Shown: positions 20,301-34,700 of the stretch, piece by piece | How the letters are laid out: each line of letters starts with the position of its first letter | Numbering within the stretch: position 1 is the first letter of the stretch | Assembly (NCBI GenBank): GCA_958009085.1 | Contig: OY253668.1 | Coordinates: 1,550,001 to 1,614,000, forward strand | Origin: Protoeuglena noctilucae | Taxonomy: Eukaryota | Length of the DNA: 64,000 bases | Reading direction: 5' to 3' | Notes under the pieces: generated by a model | Told to the model about the DNA's origin: nothing | The model's input: only the letters and a program-made list of their open reading frames with translations | Database searches by the model: none | Program-made: the position numbers and the translations under genes

Positions 20301-23300
20301 ACTTCATCCGCACCACTGGACGGCATAGCTGAGCGGCACGCCAGGGGCGAGCTCGAAGCCGAGGCCAACGCAGCAAAGGTGAACAGCAGGCGTGCAGCTG
20401 TGCTTGCGGGCATCAGTGTTGCCGCATCCTTTGCCCACCTTCCGTGTGCACGCCGTGGCTGCTCGTGACCCTGACTTCGGCATGGCACCCGCAGGCAAGC
20501 GCTGAGAGCGCGCGTGCGCGGGCAGCCATGCTTGAGCATCGTGTGGAGGACCTCTGCGCGGCGTTGGAGGCGAAGGACCGCCGCCTGCATGAGATGCGAA
20601 TGGCGCTGGCACAGGCCATGGACGCCAGCGCCATCAATAGTAGCAGAGCCACTGCCGCCAGCTCCAAGGCGACGGCGGAACGGGCGTGCCAGTGCGATGC
20701 GGCGGTCGTGACAGACCGGGCAAACCAGTGCGATGCCGCAGTATTGGCAGAGCGGGCGTGCCAGGCGGGGGGCGGCGAGGTGACAGTCAGCGCGGACGGG
20801 CGAGCGTGGACGGCGCGAGAGCTTTGGGAGGCGCTGGGAGAGGCCAAGCGGCACTACGCGGCGGCGCGGAACGAGCTGGCGCGGCTGCGGCAGGCCACGC
20901 CGGCGCAGGGCGACTGCGAAGGGCAGGCCCAGCGCTGTGGGTGGAGGGCGGCGATCGAGCCAGCCACAACGAGGGTCGCGACGCTGATGGACAAGCTGGG
21001 GCTCAGTTCCGACGTCGACGGCGGCTCGATGGATGCGGCCGGGGACGTGGCTGGTCATCTGGAGGCCCTGGTTGACTGGGCCGAAAGGGCGGCACAGCGA
21101 CTGGCGGCCGCGGAAGGAGCGGCGCAGGAGGCGGCAGAGGTCTGGGCGGATCGCGAGGTGGTCATGCGCAGAGCGGAGGAGCTGGAGAGGGCGCTGCGGG
21201 AAGCGCAGACGGCGCGGGAGGCGGCCGTCTCGGCAGCGCAAGAGGCAGAGCGGCGAGCGCGGCGGTGCGTGATGGAGCGAGACAGCGCGGCTGCGGAGGC
21301 GAGGGCGGCGCGAGATCAGGCGAGAGAGGCGGGCAGGGTCGCGGAGCAAGCGGCGCGGCAGGCGGAGTCCGGAGGACCGCTTGGGCCCGGCCTGACGGCA
21401 CCGTCACCCGAAGTGCCCCAGGTGGGGACCCATGGCGCTGAGGCGGTCGTGAGGCGGGCGAGGGCATCGGGGCGGGAGCCGGAAGGGCCGCGGGAGGAGG
21501 CGGGGGTGCAGTGCGCGCCGCGGGTGGTCGACAGGGGCGTGCAAGCGGGGAGCTCAGGTGCCGCTGACGACGACGTTGCCGCGGTGGGGTCGGAGGGCGG
21601 GAGTCGCAGCGAGCCTGAGAGCGCGGTGTTGCGTGAGGACCTGGCAGGGGCGCTGGCTCGGCTGGCGGACGTGGCGGGGGCGTTGGAGGACGCGCGGGGA
21701 CAGTGGAGCGAGGCGGAGGCGAGGGTGCGGGACCTGGAGGGGGCGCTGAGCCGCGCTGAGAGTGGGGAGAGGGCGGCCCGGGAAGCGGCAGCAGAGGCGG
21801 AGGCGCGTTTGGAAGAGGTGGCCAGGCAGGGAGCAGAGGTGGAGGCACGATTGGAAGAGGCAGTGAGGCTGCGGGCGGACTTTGAGGCGCAGTGTGGCGC
21901 GGCTGGCCTGGAGGTGGCGCGGCTGCGGGGTGAGCTGACGCGGGCCGAGGCCGGGATGGCTGCGGCCGAAGAGGAGGCGGCGCAGCTGAGGGGCGACTGC
22001 GAGGTTGGAACGGCGGAGGCGGCGCGGGTGGCGAGAGCAGCCAAGGAGGCCGTGGCGGATGCGGAGAGGGCGCGAGACGCCGCCGTCGAGCGTGTGCGGG
22101 CCGCGGAGGCCGAGAGAGCTGCGGCGGAGCGCGCGAGGGAGGCTGCAGAGGCGCAGCTGCGGGAGGCGGAAGCGGAGGTGGCGGGGCTGAGAAGTGACGT
22201 GGCGAGGCTGGAGGAGGCGGCGAGGGACGGGCAGCGCGCGGCTGGAGAGCTTGCGGCTGCGAGGGAGGACCTGGCCAAGGCGAGGGAGGAGGTGGCGGTG
22301 CTGTCAGCAGAGGCGAGGGTCGCGGTGGGCGAGCTGGAGAGGGCGCGTGGGGAAGCTGAGAAGGCGCATGCGGAAGTCGAGAGGGCGCGTGGAGAGGCAG
22401 AGGAGCTGCGGGTTGAGGTGGAGGGCCTACGTGGGGAGCGTGACCGAGCGATGAGAGAGGCCCAGGAGGCTGGCAGGCGCGCAGAGGCGGCTCAGGCAGA
22501 GGCTGAGCGAGCGCGGAGAGAGGCCGCGGGGGCGGCGGCGGGGCACGGGGAGCGCGTGTCTGCGCTGGAGGCGGCGGTTGCGGCAGCAGAGGCACGCGCG
22601 CGGCGTGCGGTGACGGACGCGGATGCGTGGAGGACGAGGGCGGAGGAGGAGGGAGAGGCGGCGCGGGCGGCGGAAGAGAGGGCCGTAGAGCAGCGGTGAG
22701 GGTTTATAGGGCTGGGACAGTGCGGGGTCGCCAGCAATGGCGTTGCGAGCAAGCTTTGGTTTGCGCGGCCAGGGTTGGGAATGTGAAGGCAAGAGAGCGC
22801 TGAAATCTCCGCCGTGTGAGTCGATGCAGGTCGGTGGCTGCTGAGCTCTTGTCGCGGTGTGCGGACCTGGAGGCGCGCCTGGCTGCGGCGGAGGAGGCGG
22901 CGGTGCGGACGGACCGGGCAGCGAGCGAGGTCGCGGGGCAGCAGGCGGCGAGCGCCTGCAAGGCGCTCGGCGACGCGACGCAGCGCCTGAGGGAGGTGCG
23001 GCACGGCTTTGGTCATGGGCGAGCTTCGGTGCTGGTCCCCTGGGATGCCGTGCGTCAACCCAGAAACCACAGTTCACGCGCGAAAGGTTTACGTCGTTGC
23101 TTAGATCACCCATGTATGCTGCAACCCCGCCCCTGTCTGGGTCTTGGGCCTGCACCGCCGCTGCGGTGCCGTTTCCGTCGCAGGCGGTGGCGTCGCTCAA
23201 CGCCAAGGAGCAGGAGTTAGAGGACGCGAGGGTGGCCAAAGCGAAGGCAGAGGAGGAGGCGGGGCGACTGAGGCGATTGCTGGCCCAGAGTCAGCGCCGA

Positions 23301-25386
23301 GCGGAGGCTTTGGAGGCGGCAGTGGGCAAGGCCACCAAGGTCGAAGCAGCGGAGGGCGCGGGCGCGCGTGTGGGGGCTGAGGGCGGGCGTGAGGGGTGGG
23401 AGGAGGTGCGGGCGATGGCGGCGCGAATGGCGGAGCGTCAGGGGGGGTCGGGTGAGGGGGGCGATGCAGGGGGCCGCGTGGCAGAGGGTCTGGCGGCACT
23501 GAGGCAGAAGATGGAGGAGCTGTTGAGAGAGGAGGGGCGGGCGGGGAGGGACGCCCGTCGGATGGAGCTGGCGCTGGTGGCTTGCGAGGCGGAGCGGGAC
23601 ACCCTGCGGGCGGCGGTGCGGGAGGCGGAGGCGGCGGCAGCGGCAGCGACAGCGGCGGCGGAGGGGGCGCGCGGGGAGCTGGCGGTGGCGAGGCACGAAT
23701 CGAAGGAGGCGGCGCGGGCGCAGCAGGAGCTGGGACAGGCGAGAGGACGGTAGATTCGAGCCTAGCATGCATGCATGTCGCATCACGTTGTGTGCCTGAG
23801 ACAGACACCTGCCCGGCCGCCCCCGCAGCGCATCGCCACGTGGCACTCCCCGGAGGGCTGCGAGGCGCGGATGGAAGAGGCGAAGGCCGCGACGGCAGTG
23901 GCTCGCCAGGCGGCGGCGCGAGCAGAGGCGGGGCGCGTGGCAGCGGAGGACCGGGCCCGGCAGGCGGTGAAGGAGGTGAGGGCGCCGGGAGAGCGGGCAT
24001 CTGTGGTCAAAATGTAGCTTGCAACTCTGTCGTCGTCACGCGAGATCGCACTGGCCCCTGCAGACGCTGGCAGCGGAGGCGGCGGCGGCGGCGGCTGCGG
24101 TGGAGCTTCGGAGGGCCAGGGCCGAGGTCTCGAGGCTGGAAGGCGCAGTGGCGGACCTGGAGTCGGAATTGGCGTCCGTCAAAGCCCGGGCGGCGGCGGC
24201 GGTGGACCGGGGGACGGCCGCAGGTGTGGCCGATGGGGTGGAGCGCGTCGACGTGCCCAGCGTCGTGCACGCGTGGAGAGCGGCTGTGGCGGAGGCAGAG
24301 GGGGGAAGGGAGGAGGCGCGTGCGGAGGCGGAGAGGTGGCGCGCCGTTGCAGAGGAGCGTGGCAGCGTGGCAGCCCTTGCCAAGGACGCCGAAGGGAAGC
24401 AGGCAAGCAGTACCCTCGCCATGCTGTGCTGCCCACCCGCTGCCATCGCTCACACTTGCCGCCGCTCTCGGCCGATGCGCGATGCCGCCTGCCTGCCTTG
24501 CACCCAGATGCGGCAGCTGGAGGAGCTTAGGGACCGGTGCCGCCGAGCAGAGGACGCCAGGAGCGCGCTTGAGGCGGAGCTGCGCGGGGCGCTGGCGAAA
24601 GCGGCGGAGGCAGAGGCGGCGCGGGCGGCGCTGGAGCAGCGGGTGGCGGAGGCGGAGCGGGCGGGCGCGGGGTCGGCGGAGCTCCGCGCCGAGCTCGAGT
24701 CTGCGAGGCAGGAGACGGCGTCGTTGCGGGTGCGGGTGGCCGACAAGGCCCAGCGCCTGGAGACGGCGCTGGAGGAGGTGGCCGCGCGGCAGCGGCGCGT
24801 GGCGCGGCTGACGGACGACCTGACGGCTGCGCGGGAGCGGGAGCGGCGGCTGGCGGGGCAGGCGGAGAAGCGGGGCAAGGAGGTAGCCGAGCTGACGACC
24901 CTGGTGAGGGGCGCTGGGATCGAAGGGACAGGAATCTCTGTTTCTGACTCGGCTGCCCCGCCGCTGCTGCTTGTTTGCTCACGTATATTTGTCGTCCACC
25001 GCCTGAGCGATGTTGTTTCTGTTCTCCCGCAGCTGTCGGCGTGGGAGCGTATGCGAAGGTCCAAGGACCACCACTTGGACAGCTTGATCCAGAGGCAGGC
25101 GGGCGGTGGCGTGGCTGCCCTGTCGGAGCCTGGGGAGGCCCGGGGGCAGGTAGAAGGGTCGAGCGCGGTGGCGGCGAAGCGGCCTCCACGTGCGTTCATG
25201 GCTCTGGGGACAGAGGGGCCAGGCGTGGGCAAGGAGAACCTGGGAGAGGCGAGGGGGTCTGGGGATGCAGGGAAAGAGCCCAGGGCGTCGTTGATGGGGC
25301 TGAGGAGTCCCCTTGCCCCTAGGGACGGCAATGCGAACGCCGCACAGGGCGGCCTGAGTCAGGCGTGCGAGGGGGGGCAGTCGTGA
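14397..25386 (+). CDS. Giant multi-exon Ala/Glu/Arg-rich coiled-coil protein of unknown function (centrosomal or cytoskeletal scaffold-like)
   Basis: About 11 kb of successive + strand exons with heptad-like AEARAR/LEEA composition, joined by frame-consistent GT-AG and GC-AG introns. Final exon LSAWERMRRSKD...GKENL...RSPLAPRDGN. The span could hide two genes. Confidence 0.75.
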
Positions 25387-25660
25387 TCTCACCCACCGCG
25401 CGATCGTGTGGCTAGCAGTTAATCACTAGCAGATGACTAGCAGATGGCATGGAGTGTCTGCGGGATCCTGGCATGTCTCGCTTAGTCGTTAGACGCCACA
25501 TCGACCGTGACCGTTTGAAAAGCTTCAGCCTCTGCCCGAGGGCGCTAAGCACTGTCAAGGCGCCAGGCACCCAAGGCAGCACCCGTCTGCAGCGCGTCTA
25601 CTAAAAGCAGAGACCCGGCAGCGGTGGGACCGGAAAGCAGCAAACATCAGGCTGCGCCGG

Positions 25661-28411
25661 TCACTTGCGGCCCGCAGCCTCGGCCTGGCTGAGGACCCAC
25701 CGCGCGAGGGTGCGCACGCCCCACCCCGTGGCGCCGCCCGCGCCCTCGTCCCACACCGGGCCCGCCATGTCGATGTGCGCCCACTCGACCTTGTCAGTCG
25801 ACACAAACTCCTTCAGGAAGAGCGCCGCCGTGATGGACCCACCCCAGCGGGACCCGGTGTTCTTCATGTCGGCGACGTGGGACTTGAGCGTGTCGGCATA
25901 CGACTCCTCCAAAGGCAGCCGCCAAATCTTCTCGCCAGCCGCCCGGGCCGCGCTGGTGAGGTCGTGGGCAATGTCGTCACGGTACGTGAACATCCCCGCG
26001 ATGCCGGTACCCAGGCCGACCATGCACGCGCCCGTCAGCGTGGCCACGTCCACGATCGCCTGCACCCCGCACGTCTGCAGTCAAAGAGGCCAGATGCGTT
26101 GCGCTCGAGCACTACGGTCTCATCGTACAGAATGAATGAGACAGAACACAAATGCGGATCCGTCTAGATAACCCCTGGCCTCAGCACTCCAGATTCACGG
26201 AATTCGCCCACAGCGGCCGCCGCCCGGGCCGAGCCCACGCCGCCGCCGCCGCAGCCCCCCCCGAGCGTCGGCCGGCGCGACATCACACGGCCGCGCCGAC
26301 CTCAGCCGCCGCCATCGGCTGGGAAGCGGGACAGCAGACGGGCAGGCCCGGACCAGGCGCGCGCATTAACCCCACCCGGGGAGCGAGGGGCGGGCACCCA
26401 AGCGACCCCCGCACAGCCCAGCCCTTGGACAGATCGGGAAGCTTACTCCCGAGGGCGTCGGGCGGGAAGCTGTCACTCGGGCGCCCGCATCCCCGCCGCG
26501 CATGACGGCCCGGGCGTCGCGTCAGTTGTCATCACAGGCCACAACTGCGACCACCGCCACCCCTGCGCCACCCTCCAGCTACACCAGCGCAGTGTCTTGC
26601 CTTCTCGGCGTAGTAGAGGGCATCCGCCAGTGTGAGGCGCCCCTCGGCGTCGGTGTTGTTGATTTCGATGGACTTGCCATTGGAAGCGACCAGGACGTCC
26701 CCGGGCCGCATGCCCTTGCCGTCAATCATGTTCTCGCAGGAAGCCACGATCACGTGCACCTCCACGTTCGCCGGCTGCGGGAAGAGACGCGGCCATGCTT
26801 GGCGTATGGTATGGTTGCCTCGCGACGAACCGAGGTCGCATGCGACGACGCCCGTCGTCTCACACGCCCCACGTTCCCGCGGCCGGGCCCATCCGCCCTC
26901 CGTGCACCTCTCTTGTGTGTAATACTGCATAGCGCAGTTTCAATCAGCCGTCGCCGCGTGGGCCACTCGCCTTGAGCTCCGAGATGATCTTGGCGGCGCC
27001 AAACACGGCCCCGGCCCCGCCCATGTCGAACTTCATCATCTCAATCATGGACCCGGCGACCTTGAGGTTGTACCCGCCAGAGTCGAAGGTGAGGCCCTTG
27101 CCGATGAGCGCGATGCGCTTCTTCACCTCCCCCTGGGGCTTGTACGTCAGGTGGATGAACTTCGGGGGCTCCTCCGAGCACGCCGCCACGCCCAGGTAAG
27201 AACCCATGTTGAGCTTCTGGCTGCGTGGATGTGAAACTGTTCCGGAGCTCAATGACGGCGAGAAGAGTGCGAGGGCGGAGCAGCGCCTCAGGTGGCAAGG
27301 GCAGGCGGTGCGCTCCTCATCACTACCACGCATGTGGCGCCGCCTCACCAGTCCTCCTTCTCGAGGACCTTGAGGGTGACGCAGCCCCCGGACTGGTCGG
27401 CGATCATCTTGGCCGCCTCCGCCAGGTGCGTGGGCGTGCACACGTTCGGGGGCGCCTCGACCAAGTAGCGCGTCAGGAAGGTTCCCGTGGCGTAGACACC
27501 GGCGCGGTCGATGGCGGCCGCGGCCCCGGCGACGGCGTCCAGCACCGCCACCGTCTCCAGCTTGCTCTCGTTGGGCTTGGACTTGAACCGCGTGGACTCG
27601 TACGCCCCCAGGTGCACCCCGGTGGCCACGCTCTCCGCGGCCGCCTCGGTCATGGGGCCGGAGACGAGCATGACCGCAGCCGTCTGCGAAGTGGAGGGCG
27701 GGCGGAGACGCGTCTCGCCGAAGGCGCGGGTGCAACCAGGGCTGTGTGGATGCGTCGCTTCCACGTGCCGCGGCCTCGCCTTGCACTTGTTGGCCTTCGC
27801 CTGCGTGGCCAGAGCAGCGCCGAGGTTGTAGTAGGCGTTCGGGCCGCCCTGCGCGCCGGGCGGGTCGGCAGCCTTGGCACGGTCGCCCAGGCCCACGACG
27901 GCGAGGAACTTGGCGTCGGCGCCGACGCGCGCGGCGATCGTCGAGCCGGCCTTGCCCGCGAACTCGTTCTCCGCGATCAGCTCGGCGAGCACGCCGTTGA
28001 ACTGCGGGCCGGGGCGGGACGCGGTAGGTCGGACCACGAGCGAGCGATGACCCTCCGCTAACCGCGCGCGAGGCCGCGGCGGGCGCTCGCCTTGGCGTCC
28101 ATGGCCTTGAGCGCGTCGATCTCGTCCTCATGGCAGCCGATGACGAGGAGGTCGCCCTTGAAGGGGCCCGCGGAGGGGGAGACCTTGACCATGCGCGCGG
28201 GGAGGAGCGGGACCTCCTTGGTGTTCATCGAGGGGATGGCGGTCAGCATCTTGACCTCTTTCTCCTTGTCGCTCCCGGCGGCGGCGGCGATGGCGCGGCG
28301 GGGCGCGGGGCAGGACGCGGGGCCCCAACGGATGGGTCGCGTAGCAAGGTGCGCAACCGTCCGGCAGCGCCCGAAGGATGGAAGACGCAGGGCCCTCGCA
28401 AGAAGGGACAT
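25661..28411 (-). CDS. LAP: M17 leucyl aminopeptidase with an organellar transit peptide
   Basis: [57 protein letters not shown]. Introns at 28002-28090, 27684-27779, 27221-27348, 26775-26970, 26075-26600. Confidence 0.96.
26176..26541 (-). ncRNA. Long (~366 nt) intronic box C/D sno/scaRNA candidate; putative guide for tRNA-Trp Cm34
   Basis: Minus strand reads TGGCC-T-GTGATGA (box C, 26535-26529) ... CTGA (box D, 26184-26181)-GGCCA, giving a 5-bp terminal stem in canonical K-turn register. It lies inside a 526-nt intron, ~100 nt from the 3' splice site. The interior is rich in GC hairpins. Confidence 0.7.
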
Positions 28412-31701: not shown

Positions 31702-34700
31702 TCAGCGCCGGAGCTGGCGTTCCCGGAAGCCCATGAGGTCCACGAAGGAGGCCTCCTTGGCGACCGCGTCCATGCGCACGCACGACTCTGCGGGCACGCA
31801 ACAGCGGAGTCGGTGCTCGTTGGGCCTCTCACCCGCGTCAGGGTCTCCTTGCATCCATCTGCACGCTCGCATGTTGCGGGGGCTCACCGGGAATCGGAGC
31901 CCCCATGCCCCGCAGGGACTGGAGGATGGGCCCGAGGGCGTCGTGCTCGGCGCGCGTGTCGGCAAACGCCTCCACGGGCATGCAAGCCAGGGACCGCCCG
32001 AGCATCTGCGCCCGGAGCGCCGTCCCGGGCCCGACGGGGCCGCCGCGGCGGCTCCCCAGGATGAAGCTGACCCCGTCGGGGAGCTCCCGGCCCTTGGGGC
32101 TGTCGCCGTTCTCGCCGGGGGAGTGCGGCCCCTTGCGCTCGGGCCCGCGCTTGGGGGTGCCGGGGCCGTCGTTCGGCGCCATGTCGGGGGCCGAGAGCCG
32201 CGGCAACTCCGGCCTTCGCCGACGCCGCCCCTTCGAGCCCCCGGGCGTGGCCTCGGGCCGACCCTGGCTGCCCAGCGAGTCGTGCCGCACCGCGCGGAAG
32301 GCCGGGAGGTGCTCCAGGGGCAAGGGCGCCTCCTGAAGGGCCATCCTGCGCGCGGGCGACGGGATGGGGCGCGGTCATGGGCACGGGAGGCGCAGAGCTG
32401 AGGCGGAAGTGCTGGGTCGGTATCGCAGTGCTCGAGACGTGGACTGTTTGCTCACCTGCCGTCCTCGACGACCATGCTGAGCCAGAAGGAGTAGTTGCGT
32501 GCCACGGCCTGCCGCAGGTCTCGCATCTCGGGCATGAGGTCGCAGAGGGCCGTGAGGAGCGGCCGGCACACGAACTCGATGTAATCCATCTGTAGGAAAG
32601 AGGAACGCGAGACATGGTCGGAAGGAAGAAACAAGGACCAGCAGGCCAGTGAGAGATTGCATACTCGCAGATGACAGGTGACGCGTGGCGCTTCGCGGCT
32701 CGCCTGCGACTTGGGCACGTAGCACTGCAGGGCGTCCATCAGCGCGGGCGGCGTCATCCCCAGCTCCCTCTGCAATTTTCCTTCGAAGAAGAACTCCTGG
32801 GTGATTAAGCTGCTCCACTTGGCGTGCAGGGTGGGGCACTTGAGGATGCTGCCCAGGTCGGCCAGGTGCACCAGCGCACGCATCAGCACGCTGCGGGGGT
32901 TGCGTTGGGAGGGTTGGACTCAATCGTCGTCCCCGTGGACCCTCGACGGCAGCTGCCAGCTCCGGGTCGGCGTGGCGAGAGGGCAGGGCACGCGACACAC
33001 GTCAGGCAGCACCCGGTCCTCGTCGCTCACCGGACGTCGGGCGTCTCGTACACGTCGCTGCGTGCGCCAACCTCGGAGTCGGACGGCACGCTGGGGAGGC
33101 GGGCGTCGCCCTCTGCCCCCGAGTCGACGCCCTGGGTGCCGTCCTGGCGGCGGGAGTGGGCCTTGAGGCGCAGCTCCTCGAGCTCTCCCACGATGCGGAA
33201 GTGTTGGGACATGTCCGTATCCAGGATGAGCTGCGGGGAGGGTGCCGGGGTCCTTGGAGCAGAGGATTCCATGCGCCGCTCGCCATGCAGCCAGCACCAT
33301 GTGTGTAGCACCAACCAGGGGAGAGGACCGAGCAGGCAGATGCGATTGGCAGTCCCAAGAGATACTATCATTCGTCATTGCGCCCGTTCGCGCCCCTCAC
33401 GTCGATGATGAGCTCCCGGCAGTAGCGGAAGTCCTCGCGGGTGAGCCGCGCGAAGATGTTGGCCTCTGGGGTGCGGTGGCACAGTTGGAACAGAGCCGAG
33501 GCGTGCATGTTCTCCTGAGGCGACTGGTCGTTGTACGTCAGGGCCTGCGGGGGTGGGCATGACGGCGCGCGGTTGAGAGGGGGTGGTGGAGGTGCGTGGT
33601 CACCTAGGCAAGCGCCGCCGCGGGTGCCGCGGCTCACCAGGATGTCGCCCGTGTTGACGAGGTGCGTGTTGGACACTCCGCGGTGCCCCACGTCGTGGGC
33701 GATGCTGGCGACGAGCATGCAGAACATGTCGCGGCGGGAGAGGTACTTGCGACGGAAGAAGTGGAGCTTCTTGAGTAGCAGGAAGGTCGTGTGCGTGACG
33801 TCCACGGCGTGCTCCCACCTGCAAAGGGGCGGGCTCCACTGATTGGCTGAGACGTCCATGTCCATGTCACGCCAATTGTAGTGGCGTCAGTCGCAGCGCC
33901 GCGCGTTTCCTGCTCTGTTTCTAACCTTCCCTCGCGATGCTCTAAGCCCCCAGTGCGACTCACCGATGGTATGGGTTGTCCAGGTAATTGCTCTGGATCT
34001 CCTGGAGGAATCTGCGCAGGACTGACACATGCACCGGGCCACGCTGGGCCGGGGCCGCGCCTGCTGCCGGAACGGTGCCTGCTGCCGGGGCCGTGCCTGC
34101 TGCCGGGCCATCGCAGTACGACTGGGGCTGCGGAGGAGAGCCAAGGTGACAGGCCATGGTGAGCAAGGTGAGCTGGTTAGCCGGCGCTCCCCCCCCTGGG
34201 TAGCGTGTCTTGCATCGTGCACACCCCGGCGTCTCTTCCTTACGTCTCTGCTCACCATGAGGAGGTCCTGGAAGGAAGACACGTCCTGATCGTCAGACAC
34301 ATCCTCAACTGACTCGTCCAGGAGACTGCAAGCGACAGCGTGGGTGCATGTTTCAGCTAGCTGCAGCTTAGAGAGGGAGCCACGGCACGGCAGGCGTCAC
34401 TCGCACGATGCGGCCACGAGCTGCGGCCAGCGCTCACCCGGCGACGCGGAACATGTGGACGACGCACTCGGACAGGTGCTCCTTGGGCACCGACAGAGCG
34501 TCCCACGCGAGGGTGCCAAAGTCCTGAAGGGCCTCCCGCTCCTGTTCGCTCTCTAGCGGGAGCTGGGGCGGGGACACTGCGCGCGAGGCAGCAAGGCAAT
34601 CGTCAACTCAACCAAACTGGTCGGGTCAACGCCGCACGTTGCGTCAGCGGTGCATGTGCCCCCGCAGACGTGCCCCACGTCGTCTCCAGGCTGAATGCGT

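Follow-up and report, generated by a model that had tools for sequence, protein, structure and literature searches.

The question raised by this locus is whether an intron of the marine alga Protoeuglena noctilucae carries a stable guide RNA and, if it does, which RNA would be modified through it. The intron is the last one of a minus-strand gene for an M17 leucyl aminopeptidase and lies in a 64-kb stretch of the genome (assembly GCA_958009085.1, contig OY253668.1, positions 1,550,001 to 1,614,000). This stretch is referred to below as the window, and all coordinates are counted from its first nucleotide (nt). An earlier note on this DNA had proposed that the intron contains a box C/D RNA whose guide points at the wobble cytidine, C34, of the tryptophan transfer RNA, tRNA-Trp(CCA). 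Box C/D guide RNAs are usually 60–150 nt long and are mostly aimed at ribosomal RNA (rRNA). In this intron we observed the motifs themselves, the splicing of the host transcript and a discrete RNA with assembled ends at the terminal stem. The best explanation is that the locus very probably encodes a genuine and stable box C/D RNA that derives from the intron and is unusually long, at approximately 366 nt or three to four times the usual size. The best single candidate for its target is C34 of cytosolic tRNA-Trp, an assignment that we put forward tentatively.

A discrete RNA from the last intron of an aminopeptidase gene

The predicted RNA has a RUGAUGA-type box C near its 5' end, a CUGA near its 3' end and a kink-turn terminal stem, as is expected of a box C/D small nucleolar RNA (snoRNA; Table 1). 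The stem of 5 base pairs (bp) and a single spacer nucleotide leave a 3-nt bulge ahead of the GA pairs, as in a standard kink-turn. The earlier note had described perfect boxes C and D, closed by a UGGCC/GGCCA stem in this geometry approximately 100 nt before the intron acceptor, and all of these elements were at the sites it gave, with 106 nt between box D and the acceptor. The guide that it had placed just upstream of box D, AAUCUGGAGUG, was likewise present at 26195-26185.

Transcript evidence came from a search of public sequencing runs, in which the stretch was present in marine metagenomes, in runs of one organism (organism A) and in six RNA runs. Three of the RNA runs (X9, X10 and X11) and one small-share run (X15) were aligned to 25500-28400 at 85% likeness. 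This evidence consists of assembled contigs, which carry no strand, exact ends or molecule length. Run X9 (study P3) contained a 382-nt contig that matched 26164-26545 with 0 differences and was wholly intronic; its depth was 11.3, versus 239.9 for the messenger RNA (mRNA) contig. Run X10 (study P4, random-primed) contained a 347-nt contig, also wholly intronic and with 0 differences, at 26182-26528, and its depth of 28.5 was about four times that of the mRNA contigs (6.2–6.7). In both runs the intronic contig was distinct from the spliced mRNA contig.

The distribution of depth along the gene was informative as to the origin of these contigs. In X9 and X10 the depth was 0 in the bins that lie fully within two other introns (26858-26954 and 27246-27342), and all the contig pieces listed omitted the other four introns. 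The bin 26082-26178 had a depth of 1.74 in X9 and 0 in X10, and the first 55 nt of the host intron were covered by neither intronic contig. This pattern of depth argues against DNA carry-over, intron retention and a lariat. The assembled ends bracketed the predicted RNA (26541-26176) within 4–13 nt and, in both runs, they bracketed the boxes and the stem, not the GC-rich core. Together, the depth pattern and the ends fit an RNA that was trimmed to a particle on the C/D motif. These data support, at the level of contigs, the accumulation of a discrete intron-derived RNA of approximately 366 nt that is bounded by the C/D kink-turn motif. The discrete RNA of about 360 nt that the earlier note had proposed to look for in RNA sequencing was thus represented by whole intronic contigs in two runs from two studies.

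Two further runs contributed nothing to this result. In X11 a depth of 74.7 was confined to the bin 26179-26275 and was unusable, as only one of the 17 records was at least 99% alike (that of the mRNA), the bin includes a GCG repeat and the threshold was 85%; the signal probably represents unrelated low-complexity matches and was counted neither way. In X15 (organism B) cover was confined to other parts of the aminopeptidase gene.

Based on the biogenesis of intronic snoRNAs, the aminopeptidase pre-mRNA would be spliced and the intron debranched and then trimmed by exonucleases. Trimming would halt at a particle assembled on the C/D kink-turn and the 5-bp stem, which would comprise a Snu13/L7Ae-type protein, Nop56, Nop58 and fibrillarin, and a stable RNA would be left. 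The 11 nt adjoining box D would serve as the antisense guide, and fibrillarin would be expected to 2'-O-methylate the nucleotide opposite guide position 5.

Several results weigh against the interpretation of this RNA as a 366-nt box C/D RNA. The two strands of the window hold 18 RTGATGA words and 396 CTGA words. In 100 Markov simulations a box C and a box D lying 60–450 nt apart and closed by a stem of at least 5 bp occurred on average 0.15 times per window, and at least once in 14% of the simulations. Two such combinations were found in the real window; the second (33405-33850, plus strand, 446 nt apart, 5-bp stem) runs across apparent minus-strand coding sequence and was taken as chance. 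By itself, the C/D motif is not beyond chance. A comparison with Rfam, one of the checks named in the earlier note, was run on the window and matched no curated family at gathering score, with only chance-level matches at E values up to 10. A metagenome scan with the last exon found no relative that could be compared, as all 80 loci that it yielded were at 63% identity or less and had no intron context. Finally, as the contigs lack strand, ends and length, the 366-nt form might be processed further into shorter products.

The RNA at 26176-26541 rises above chance because the contigs from two studies start and stop at the boxes. From the word frequencies in the simulations, we roughly estimated the probability that box C, box D and a 5-bp stem would all fall by chance at both ends of a given fragment as less than 1e-5. 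This estimate bears on the proposal that the fragment is not a box C/D RNA at all, and is instead a piece of structured intron that resists nucleases, carried-over DNA, or a transcript of the plus strand with box-like words at its ends. The lack of strand information in the contigs and the insignificance of the motif alone are both consistent with that proposal. We consider it very improbable, given the placement of both contig ends around the boxes and stem, the zero depth in other introns and their omission from the listed pieces, and the plus strand of the locus, which had no comparable C/D motif. Other searches for related sequences were negative: no second copy of the guide with box D was found in the window at up to three mismatches (1.31 expected by chance), and no copy of the 3' end of the RNA was found in viral contigs.

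Table 1. Coordinates of the intron-encoded RNA, its elements and the introns of the host gene in the window
Feature	Position	Strand	Description and evidence
Predicted mature box C/D RNA	26176..26541	minus	~366 nt; zero-difference RNA contigs in X9 (382 nt) and X10 (347 nt)
Terminal stem, 5' strand	26537..26541	minus	UGGCC; pairs with 26176-26180 in minimum-free-energy fold
Spacer	26536	minus	U, 1 nt, between stem and box C
Box C	26529..26535	minus	GUGAUGA; sequence
GC-rich structured interior	26208..26520	minus	Closing helix and two long hairpin domains; predicted fold
Internal D'-like box	26302..26305	minus	CUGA; followed by GGUCG, able to pair with 5' UGGCC via two G-U pairs
Internal C'-like box	26280..26286	minus	GUGAUGU; 15 nt after D'; preceded by GGCC (26292-26289), able to pair with GGCC after box D
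D guide	26185..26195	minus	AAUCUGGAGUG; 9-bp core is positions 2–10 upstream of box D (26186-26194); position 5 is 26189
Box D	26181..26184	minus	CUGA; sequence
Terminal stem, 3' strand	26176..26180	minus	GGCCA; sequence and predicted fold
Host intron (last)	26075..26600	minus	526 nt, GC-AG; M17 leucyl aminopeptidase gene; spliced joint 26074/26601 in X9 and X11 RNA contigs
Intron	26775-26970	minus	196 nt, GC-AG; same gene
Intron	27221-27348	minus	128 nt, GT-AG; same gene
Intron	27684-27779	minus	96 nt, GC-AG; same gene
Intron	28002-28090	minus	89 nt, GC-AG; same gene

Interior of the RNA and its host gene

Most of the length of the RNA lies in its interior. The earlier note had mentioned a structured interior of about 320 nt; we found approximately 310 nt. 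The whole 366-nt RNA has a GC content of 75% and its predicted fold, in which the terminal stem is closed, has an energy of -223.3 kcal/mol, which was below those of all 100 dinucleotide shuffles (z = -2.75). Three patches of lower GC content (48–52%) interrupt the RNA, at the box C end, at 26445-26425 and at 26206-26186. The last of these, at the guide, is 21 nt long and has a GC content of 48%; in the fold, only part of it is paired. The internal patch at 26425-26445 (minus strand, 48% GC) has the word AUCUG in common with the D guide and is followed by no box. An H/ACA-type insert was considered for the interior and rejected, as no arrangement of an H box (ANANNA) and an ACA was seen in a check by eye. 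As modelled by the fold, the interior of about 310 nt is a structured insertion.

The interior also contains a CUGA that is followed 15 nt on by GUGAUGU, and the flanks of this D'/C' pair would allow alternative stems. Such an arrangement raises the possibility that the locus comprises two tandem units or a nested shorter RNA, with the 366-nt species being their precursor or a stable dimer. The units would be a C-to-D' RNA of about 245 nt (26541-26297) and a C'-to-D snoRNA of canonical size (about 116 nt, 26292-26177). Nested and multi-unit stable C/D forms have been described in the green alga Ostreococcus tauri (PMC7671301). However, single contigs spanned the D'/C' junction in two runs, and just ~4 nt would lie between the two units. 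In addition, the inner stem would create a kink-turn bulge of 4 nt, not 3 nt, and the D'/C' pair, including C', sits within a hairpin of the predicted fold. We regard this organization as possible but doubtful, and it would be compatible with either of the two kinds of target discussed below.

With respect to the host gene, its exons on the minus strand encode the sequence of an M17 leucyl aminopeptidase, and homologues of the last exon carry PF00883 and PF02789, with the best named matches being from green algae and land plants (60–68% identity). No closer match was obtained, and the organism is accordingly a green-lineage alga that has no close relative among the sequences compared. The spliced contigs of X9 and X11 bore out the assignment of 26075-26600 as a GC-AG last intron of 526 nt. 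As had also been remarked in the earlier note, this intron is several times (2.7–6x) longer than its neighbors (196, 128, 96 and 89 nt). Without the ~366-nt RNA, the intron would be 160 nt long, which is inside the 89–196 nt range of the neighboring introns. The GC content of the window is 64–73%.

GC-AG introns are normally a rare class. Four of the five RNA-proven introns of the aminopeptidase gene (26075-28090, minus strand) are GC-AG, with the donors GCAAGA, GCGAGT, GCGAGG and GCGAGC, and only the intron at 27221-27348 starts with GT. This alga may use GC-AG introns routinely. Just downstream of the aminopeptidase gene, at 20333-25386, there are very long open frames on the plus strand that are rich in Ala, Glu and Arg and resemble coiled coils, with Pro- and Ala-rich frames opposite. 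These plus-strand frames may belong to a genuine coiled-coil gene or may simply reflect base composition.

Candidate targets of the guide

The candidate that drew attention to this locus is the wobble position of tRNA-Trp. In this proposal, the D guide would pair with the seven nucleotides of the anticodon loop of cytosolic tRNA-Trp(CCA) and with the 31-39 pair that closes it, and would direct the 2'-O-methylation of C34 in trans. The 64-kb window has no tRNA genes, and stand-in tRNAs were obtained by scanning contigs of prokaryote genomes for the anticodon arm (17 nt) that the earlier note had given. The scan returned 67 loci, which is about the chance expectation, and in six of these ARAGORN called a tRNA-Trp(CCA) with that arm.

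Several of the stand-in tRNA-Trp genes are on short contigs next to eukaryotic-looking tRNA genes. Two of these short contigs (L089 and L119) are filed under bacterial metagenome-assembled genomes and carry tRNA clusters, Ala/Trp/Ala/Pro on one and Asp/Trp/Asn on the other, which suggests host or eukaryote contamination of the bacterial bins.

Against the stand-in genes, guide positions 2–10 formed nine Watson-Crick pairs with tRNA positions 31–39, with a core duplex energy of -13.9 kcal/mol, and the fifth guide position (D+5) was opposite the first anticodon base. The central part of the earlier proposal, a 9-nt pairing with positions 31–39 that places D+5 on C34, is therefore supported on stand-in tRNA-Trp(CCA) genes that carry this anticodon arm, and on these only. 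When the 12-mers adjoining all 396 CTGA words were compared to eight stand-in tRNAs, this was the sole run of at least 9 bp that included position 5; runs of 8 bp numbered 0–3 per tRNA. Based on the base composition of the window, the probability that this 9-mer would occur at a fixed place by chance is 1.5e-6. The 7- and 8-mers of the antisense element were next to a D box in none of the listed snoRNA-family entries of O. tauri or land plants, in which matches to the antisense word were confined to H/ACA sequences and the O. tauri U4 small nuclear RNA (snRNA). The guide is therefore no obvious orthologue of a conserved rRNA guide.

There are, however, arguments on the other side. The stand-in tRNAs come from other sources and were picked by the very motif under test, and since many windows were screened at the first stage a rare chance match is possible. 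The earlier note had extended the pairing past a 1-nt bulge, and this extension was no better than shuffled sequence. Similarly, accessory pairing of the tRNA-Trp body with the 21 nt that precede the guide (approximately -27 kcal/mol) was equal to the shuffled controls, a fraction of 0.33–0.98 of the 1000 shuffles being at least as good, and was rejected. In eukaryotes the 2'-O-methylated cytidine at position 34 (Cm34) is normally made by Trm7 with Trm734, and 1-methylguanosine at position 37 (m1G37) would block one of the guide-tRNA pairs. A duplex of 9 bp is also short in comparison to the conserved duplex with tRNA-Met, which has at least 11 bp (PMC10576143).

That tRNA-Met duplex is nonetheless a precedent for the proposal. 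Guided formation of Cm34 in tRNA-Met by snoRNAs is established in humans, and the duplex is reported to be conserved in Arabidopsis and archaea (PMC6601510, PMC10576143). The earlier note had inferred an RNA-guided wobble-methylation route in an alga; since such methylation has already been described for eukaryotic tRNA-Met, with plants included in the precedent, the concept is a variant, not a new route (PMC6601510, PMC10576143). In full-text literature searches, the matches listed for the guide and target 9-mers were only unrelated primer and small interfering RNA sequences, and the 17-nt anticodon arm had no match. No eukaryotic report of guided Cm34 in tRNA-Trp was found in a limited literature search. 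Weighing these points, we consider C34 of tRNA-Trp a credible target, at a confidence well short of an even chance.

A lineage-specific rRNA or snRNA site is about as likely a target as C34 of tRNA-Trp. The D guide, which perhaps extends to ~21 nt (26185-26206), a D' guide upstream of 26305, or both would then be directed at such sites, and the fit to tRNA-Trp would be coincidental. The lower-GC patch of ~21 nt reaches beyond the 9-bp core and may indicate a longer antisense element with another target, and the internal D'/C' pair suggests a second guide. Moreover, rRNA is the target of most C/D snoRNAs, with 111 of the 131 snoRNAs of O. tauri predicted to act on it (PMC7671301). On the other hand, the target core CUCCAGA is absent from the Arabidopsis U1, U2, U4, U5, U6, 5.8S and 5S RNAs and the first 400 nt of the 18S and 25S rRNAs (PMC8053127 supplement), as well as from the O. 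tauri snRNAs (PMC7671301 supplement). Among the entries listed, no C/D guide of plants or O. tauri has the same antisense element, and a chance 9-bp match that falls exactly on a tRNA wobble position would be rare.

Eukaryotic rRNA was sought in two scans of viral contigs with 20-nt rRNA motifs, which recovered none. A likeness in the sense orientation to a conserved stretch of 5.8S rRNA was also noted: the 14 nt 5' of the guide core (26194-26207, minus strand) are identical to Arabidopsis 5.8S rRNA at 12 of 14 positions, which we estimated to be within chance, and the likeness was set aside.

The RNA may also be an orphan without a methylation target, in which the particle would only stabilize the molecule and any function, such as that of a chaperone, scaffold or regulator, would reside in the interior. 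About 85% of the RNA is interior, the fold of the entire molecule was more stable than those of all its shuffles, and 10 of the 22 species-specific snoRNAs of O. tauri are orphans (PMC7671301). Yet the guide patch has been kept at a lower GC content and is partly unpaired in the predicted fold, and the guide fits a known methylation site exactly. We consider an orphan RNA unlikely.

Comparison with known guide RNAs

The closest parallels to the RNA as such are the intronic C/D snoRNAs of O. tauri. In that alga 72 of 131 snoRNAs are intronic and 17 of 131 are orphans (PMC7671301). The same report describes Ot-CDsno24, a C/D RNA of 208 nt in which a product of about 75 nt is nested, as well as multi-unit stable forms longer than 200 nt, and states that no such cases had been described before in the green lineage. 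The O. tauri RNAs resemble the P. noctilucae RNA in having inverted repeats that flank boxes C and D, in their origin from pre-mRNA introns of a marine green-lineage alga, in the occurrence of long and nested forms, and in that lineage-specific orphans are common (PMC7671301). By contrast, the ~366-nt RNA is clearly longer, with a GC-rich interior of about 310 nt, and its antisense element is present in no listed O. tauri snoRNA.

Animal composite C/D RNAs offer a different parallel. These include small Cajal body-specific RNAs of ~270–330 nt with an inserted H/ACA domain. As in the RNA described here, their C and D boxes are at the two ends and close a long inserted domain; unlike them, the interior of this RNA had no H box and ACA that could be seen by eye.

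If the tRNA-Trp fit holds, the functional parallels would be found in humans and archaea. Human SNORD97 and SCARNA97 (SNORD133) guide Cm34 of elongator tRNA-Met, as established in human cells (PMC6601510). They are intronic C/D RNAs that act in trans, with the guide on the anticodon loop and the wobble cytidine at the methylation position (PMC6601510, PMC10576143). Many contacts between snoRNAs and tRNAs have been reported in a later study (PMC10576143). SNORD97 and SCARNA97 differ in having tRNA-Met as target, duplexes of at least 11 bp, ordinary size and experimental validation, whereas here there are 9 bp and complementarity to stand-in tRNA-Trp alone.

In archaea, a C/D guide is located in the intron of pre-tRNA-Trp; it acts in cis, also guides position 39 and is ~60–100 nt long, and there are in addition stand-alone small RNAs directed at C34 of tRNA-Trp. 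If the target holds, the shared feature would be a C/D particle that guides the 2'-O-methylation of C34 in tRNA-Trp. The archaeal intron guide differs from the present RNA, which is ~366 nt long, lies in an intron of a eukaryotic protein gene (for the aminopeptidase) and has no tRNA gene in the window. To our knowledge, guided Cm34 of tRNA-Trp is known from archaea only. We speculate that P. noctilucae makes Cm34 of tRNA-Trp with a trans-acting, intron-derived C/D RNA that is three to four times the normal size, thereby retaining or reinventing the archaeal strategy for tRNA-Trp beside or instead of Trm7/Trm734, and that the interior may add a function. This scenario, taken as a whole, is more doubtful than not.

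At the least, the locus provides a C/D RNA of ~366 nt for which there is direct RNA evidence and which fits no curated family; its source is a marine alga for which the searched collections contained no closely related sequenced organism. Without a functional fit to tRNA-Trp, the RNA would be a well-supported example of the expansion of C/D RNAs by GC-rich insertions. The finding would be notable if the tRNA-Trp target is confirmed and would otherwise represent a variant of known C/D RNAs. Should the 9-nt fit prove functional, tRNA-Trp would join tRNA-Met as a eukaryotic substrate of RNA-guided wobble methylation. The eukaryotic process would then also be linked to the archaeal tRNA-Trp system and provide a concrete case for guide RNAs and Trm7 sharing or exchanging sites in tRNA.

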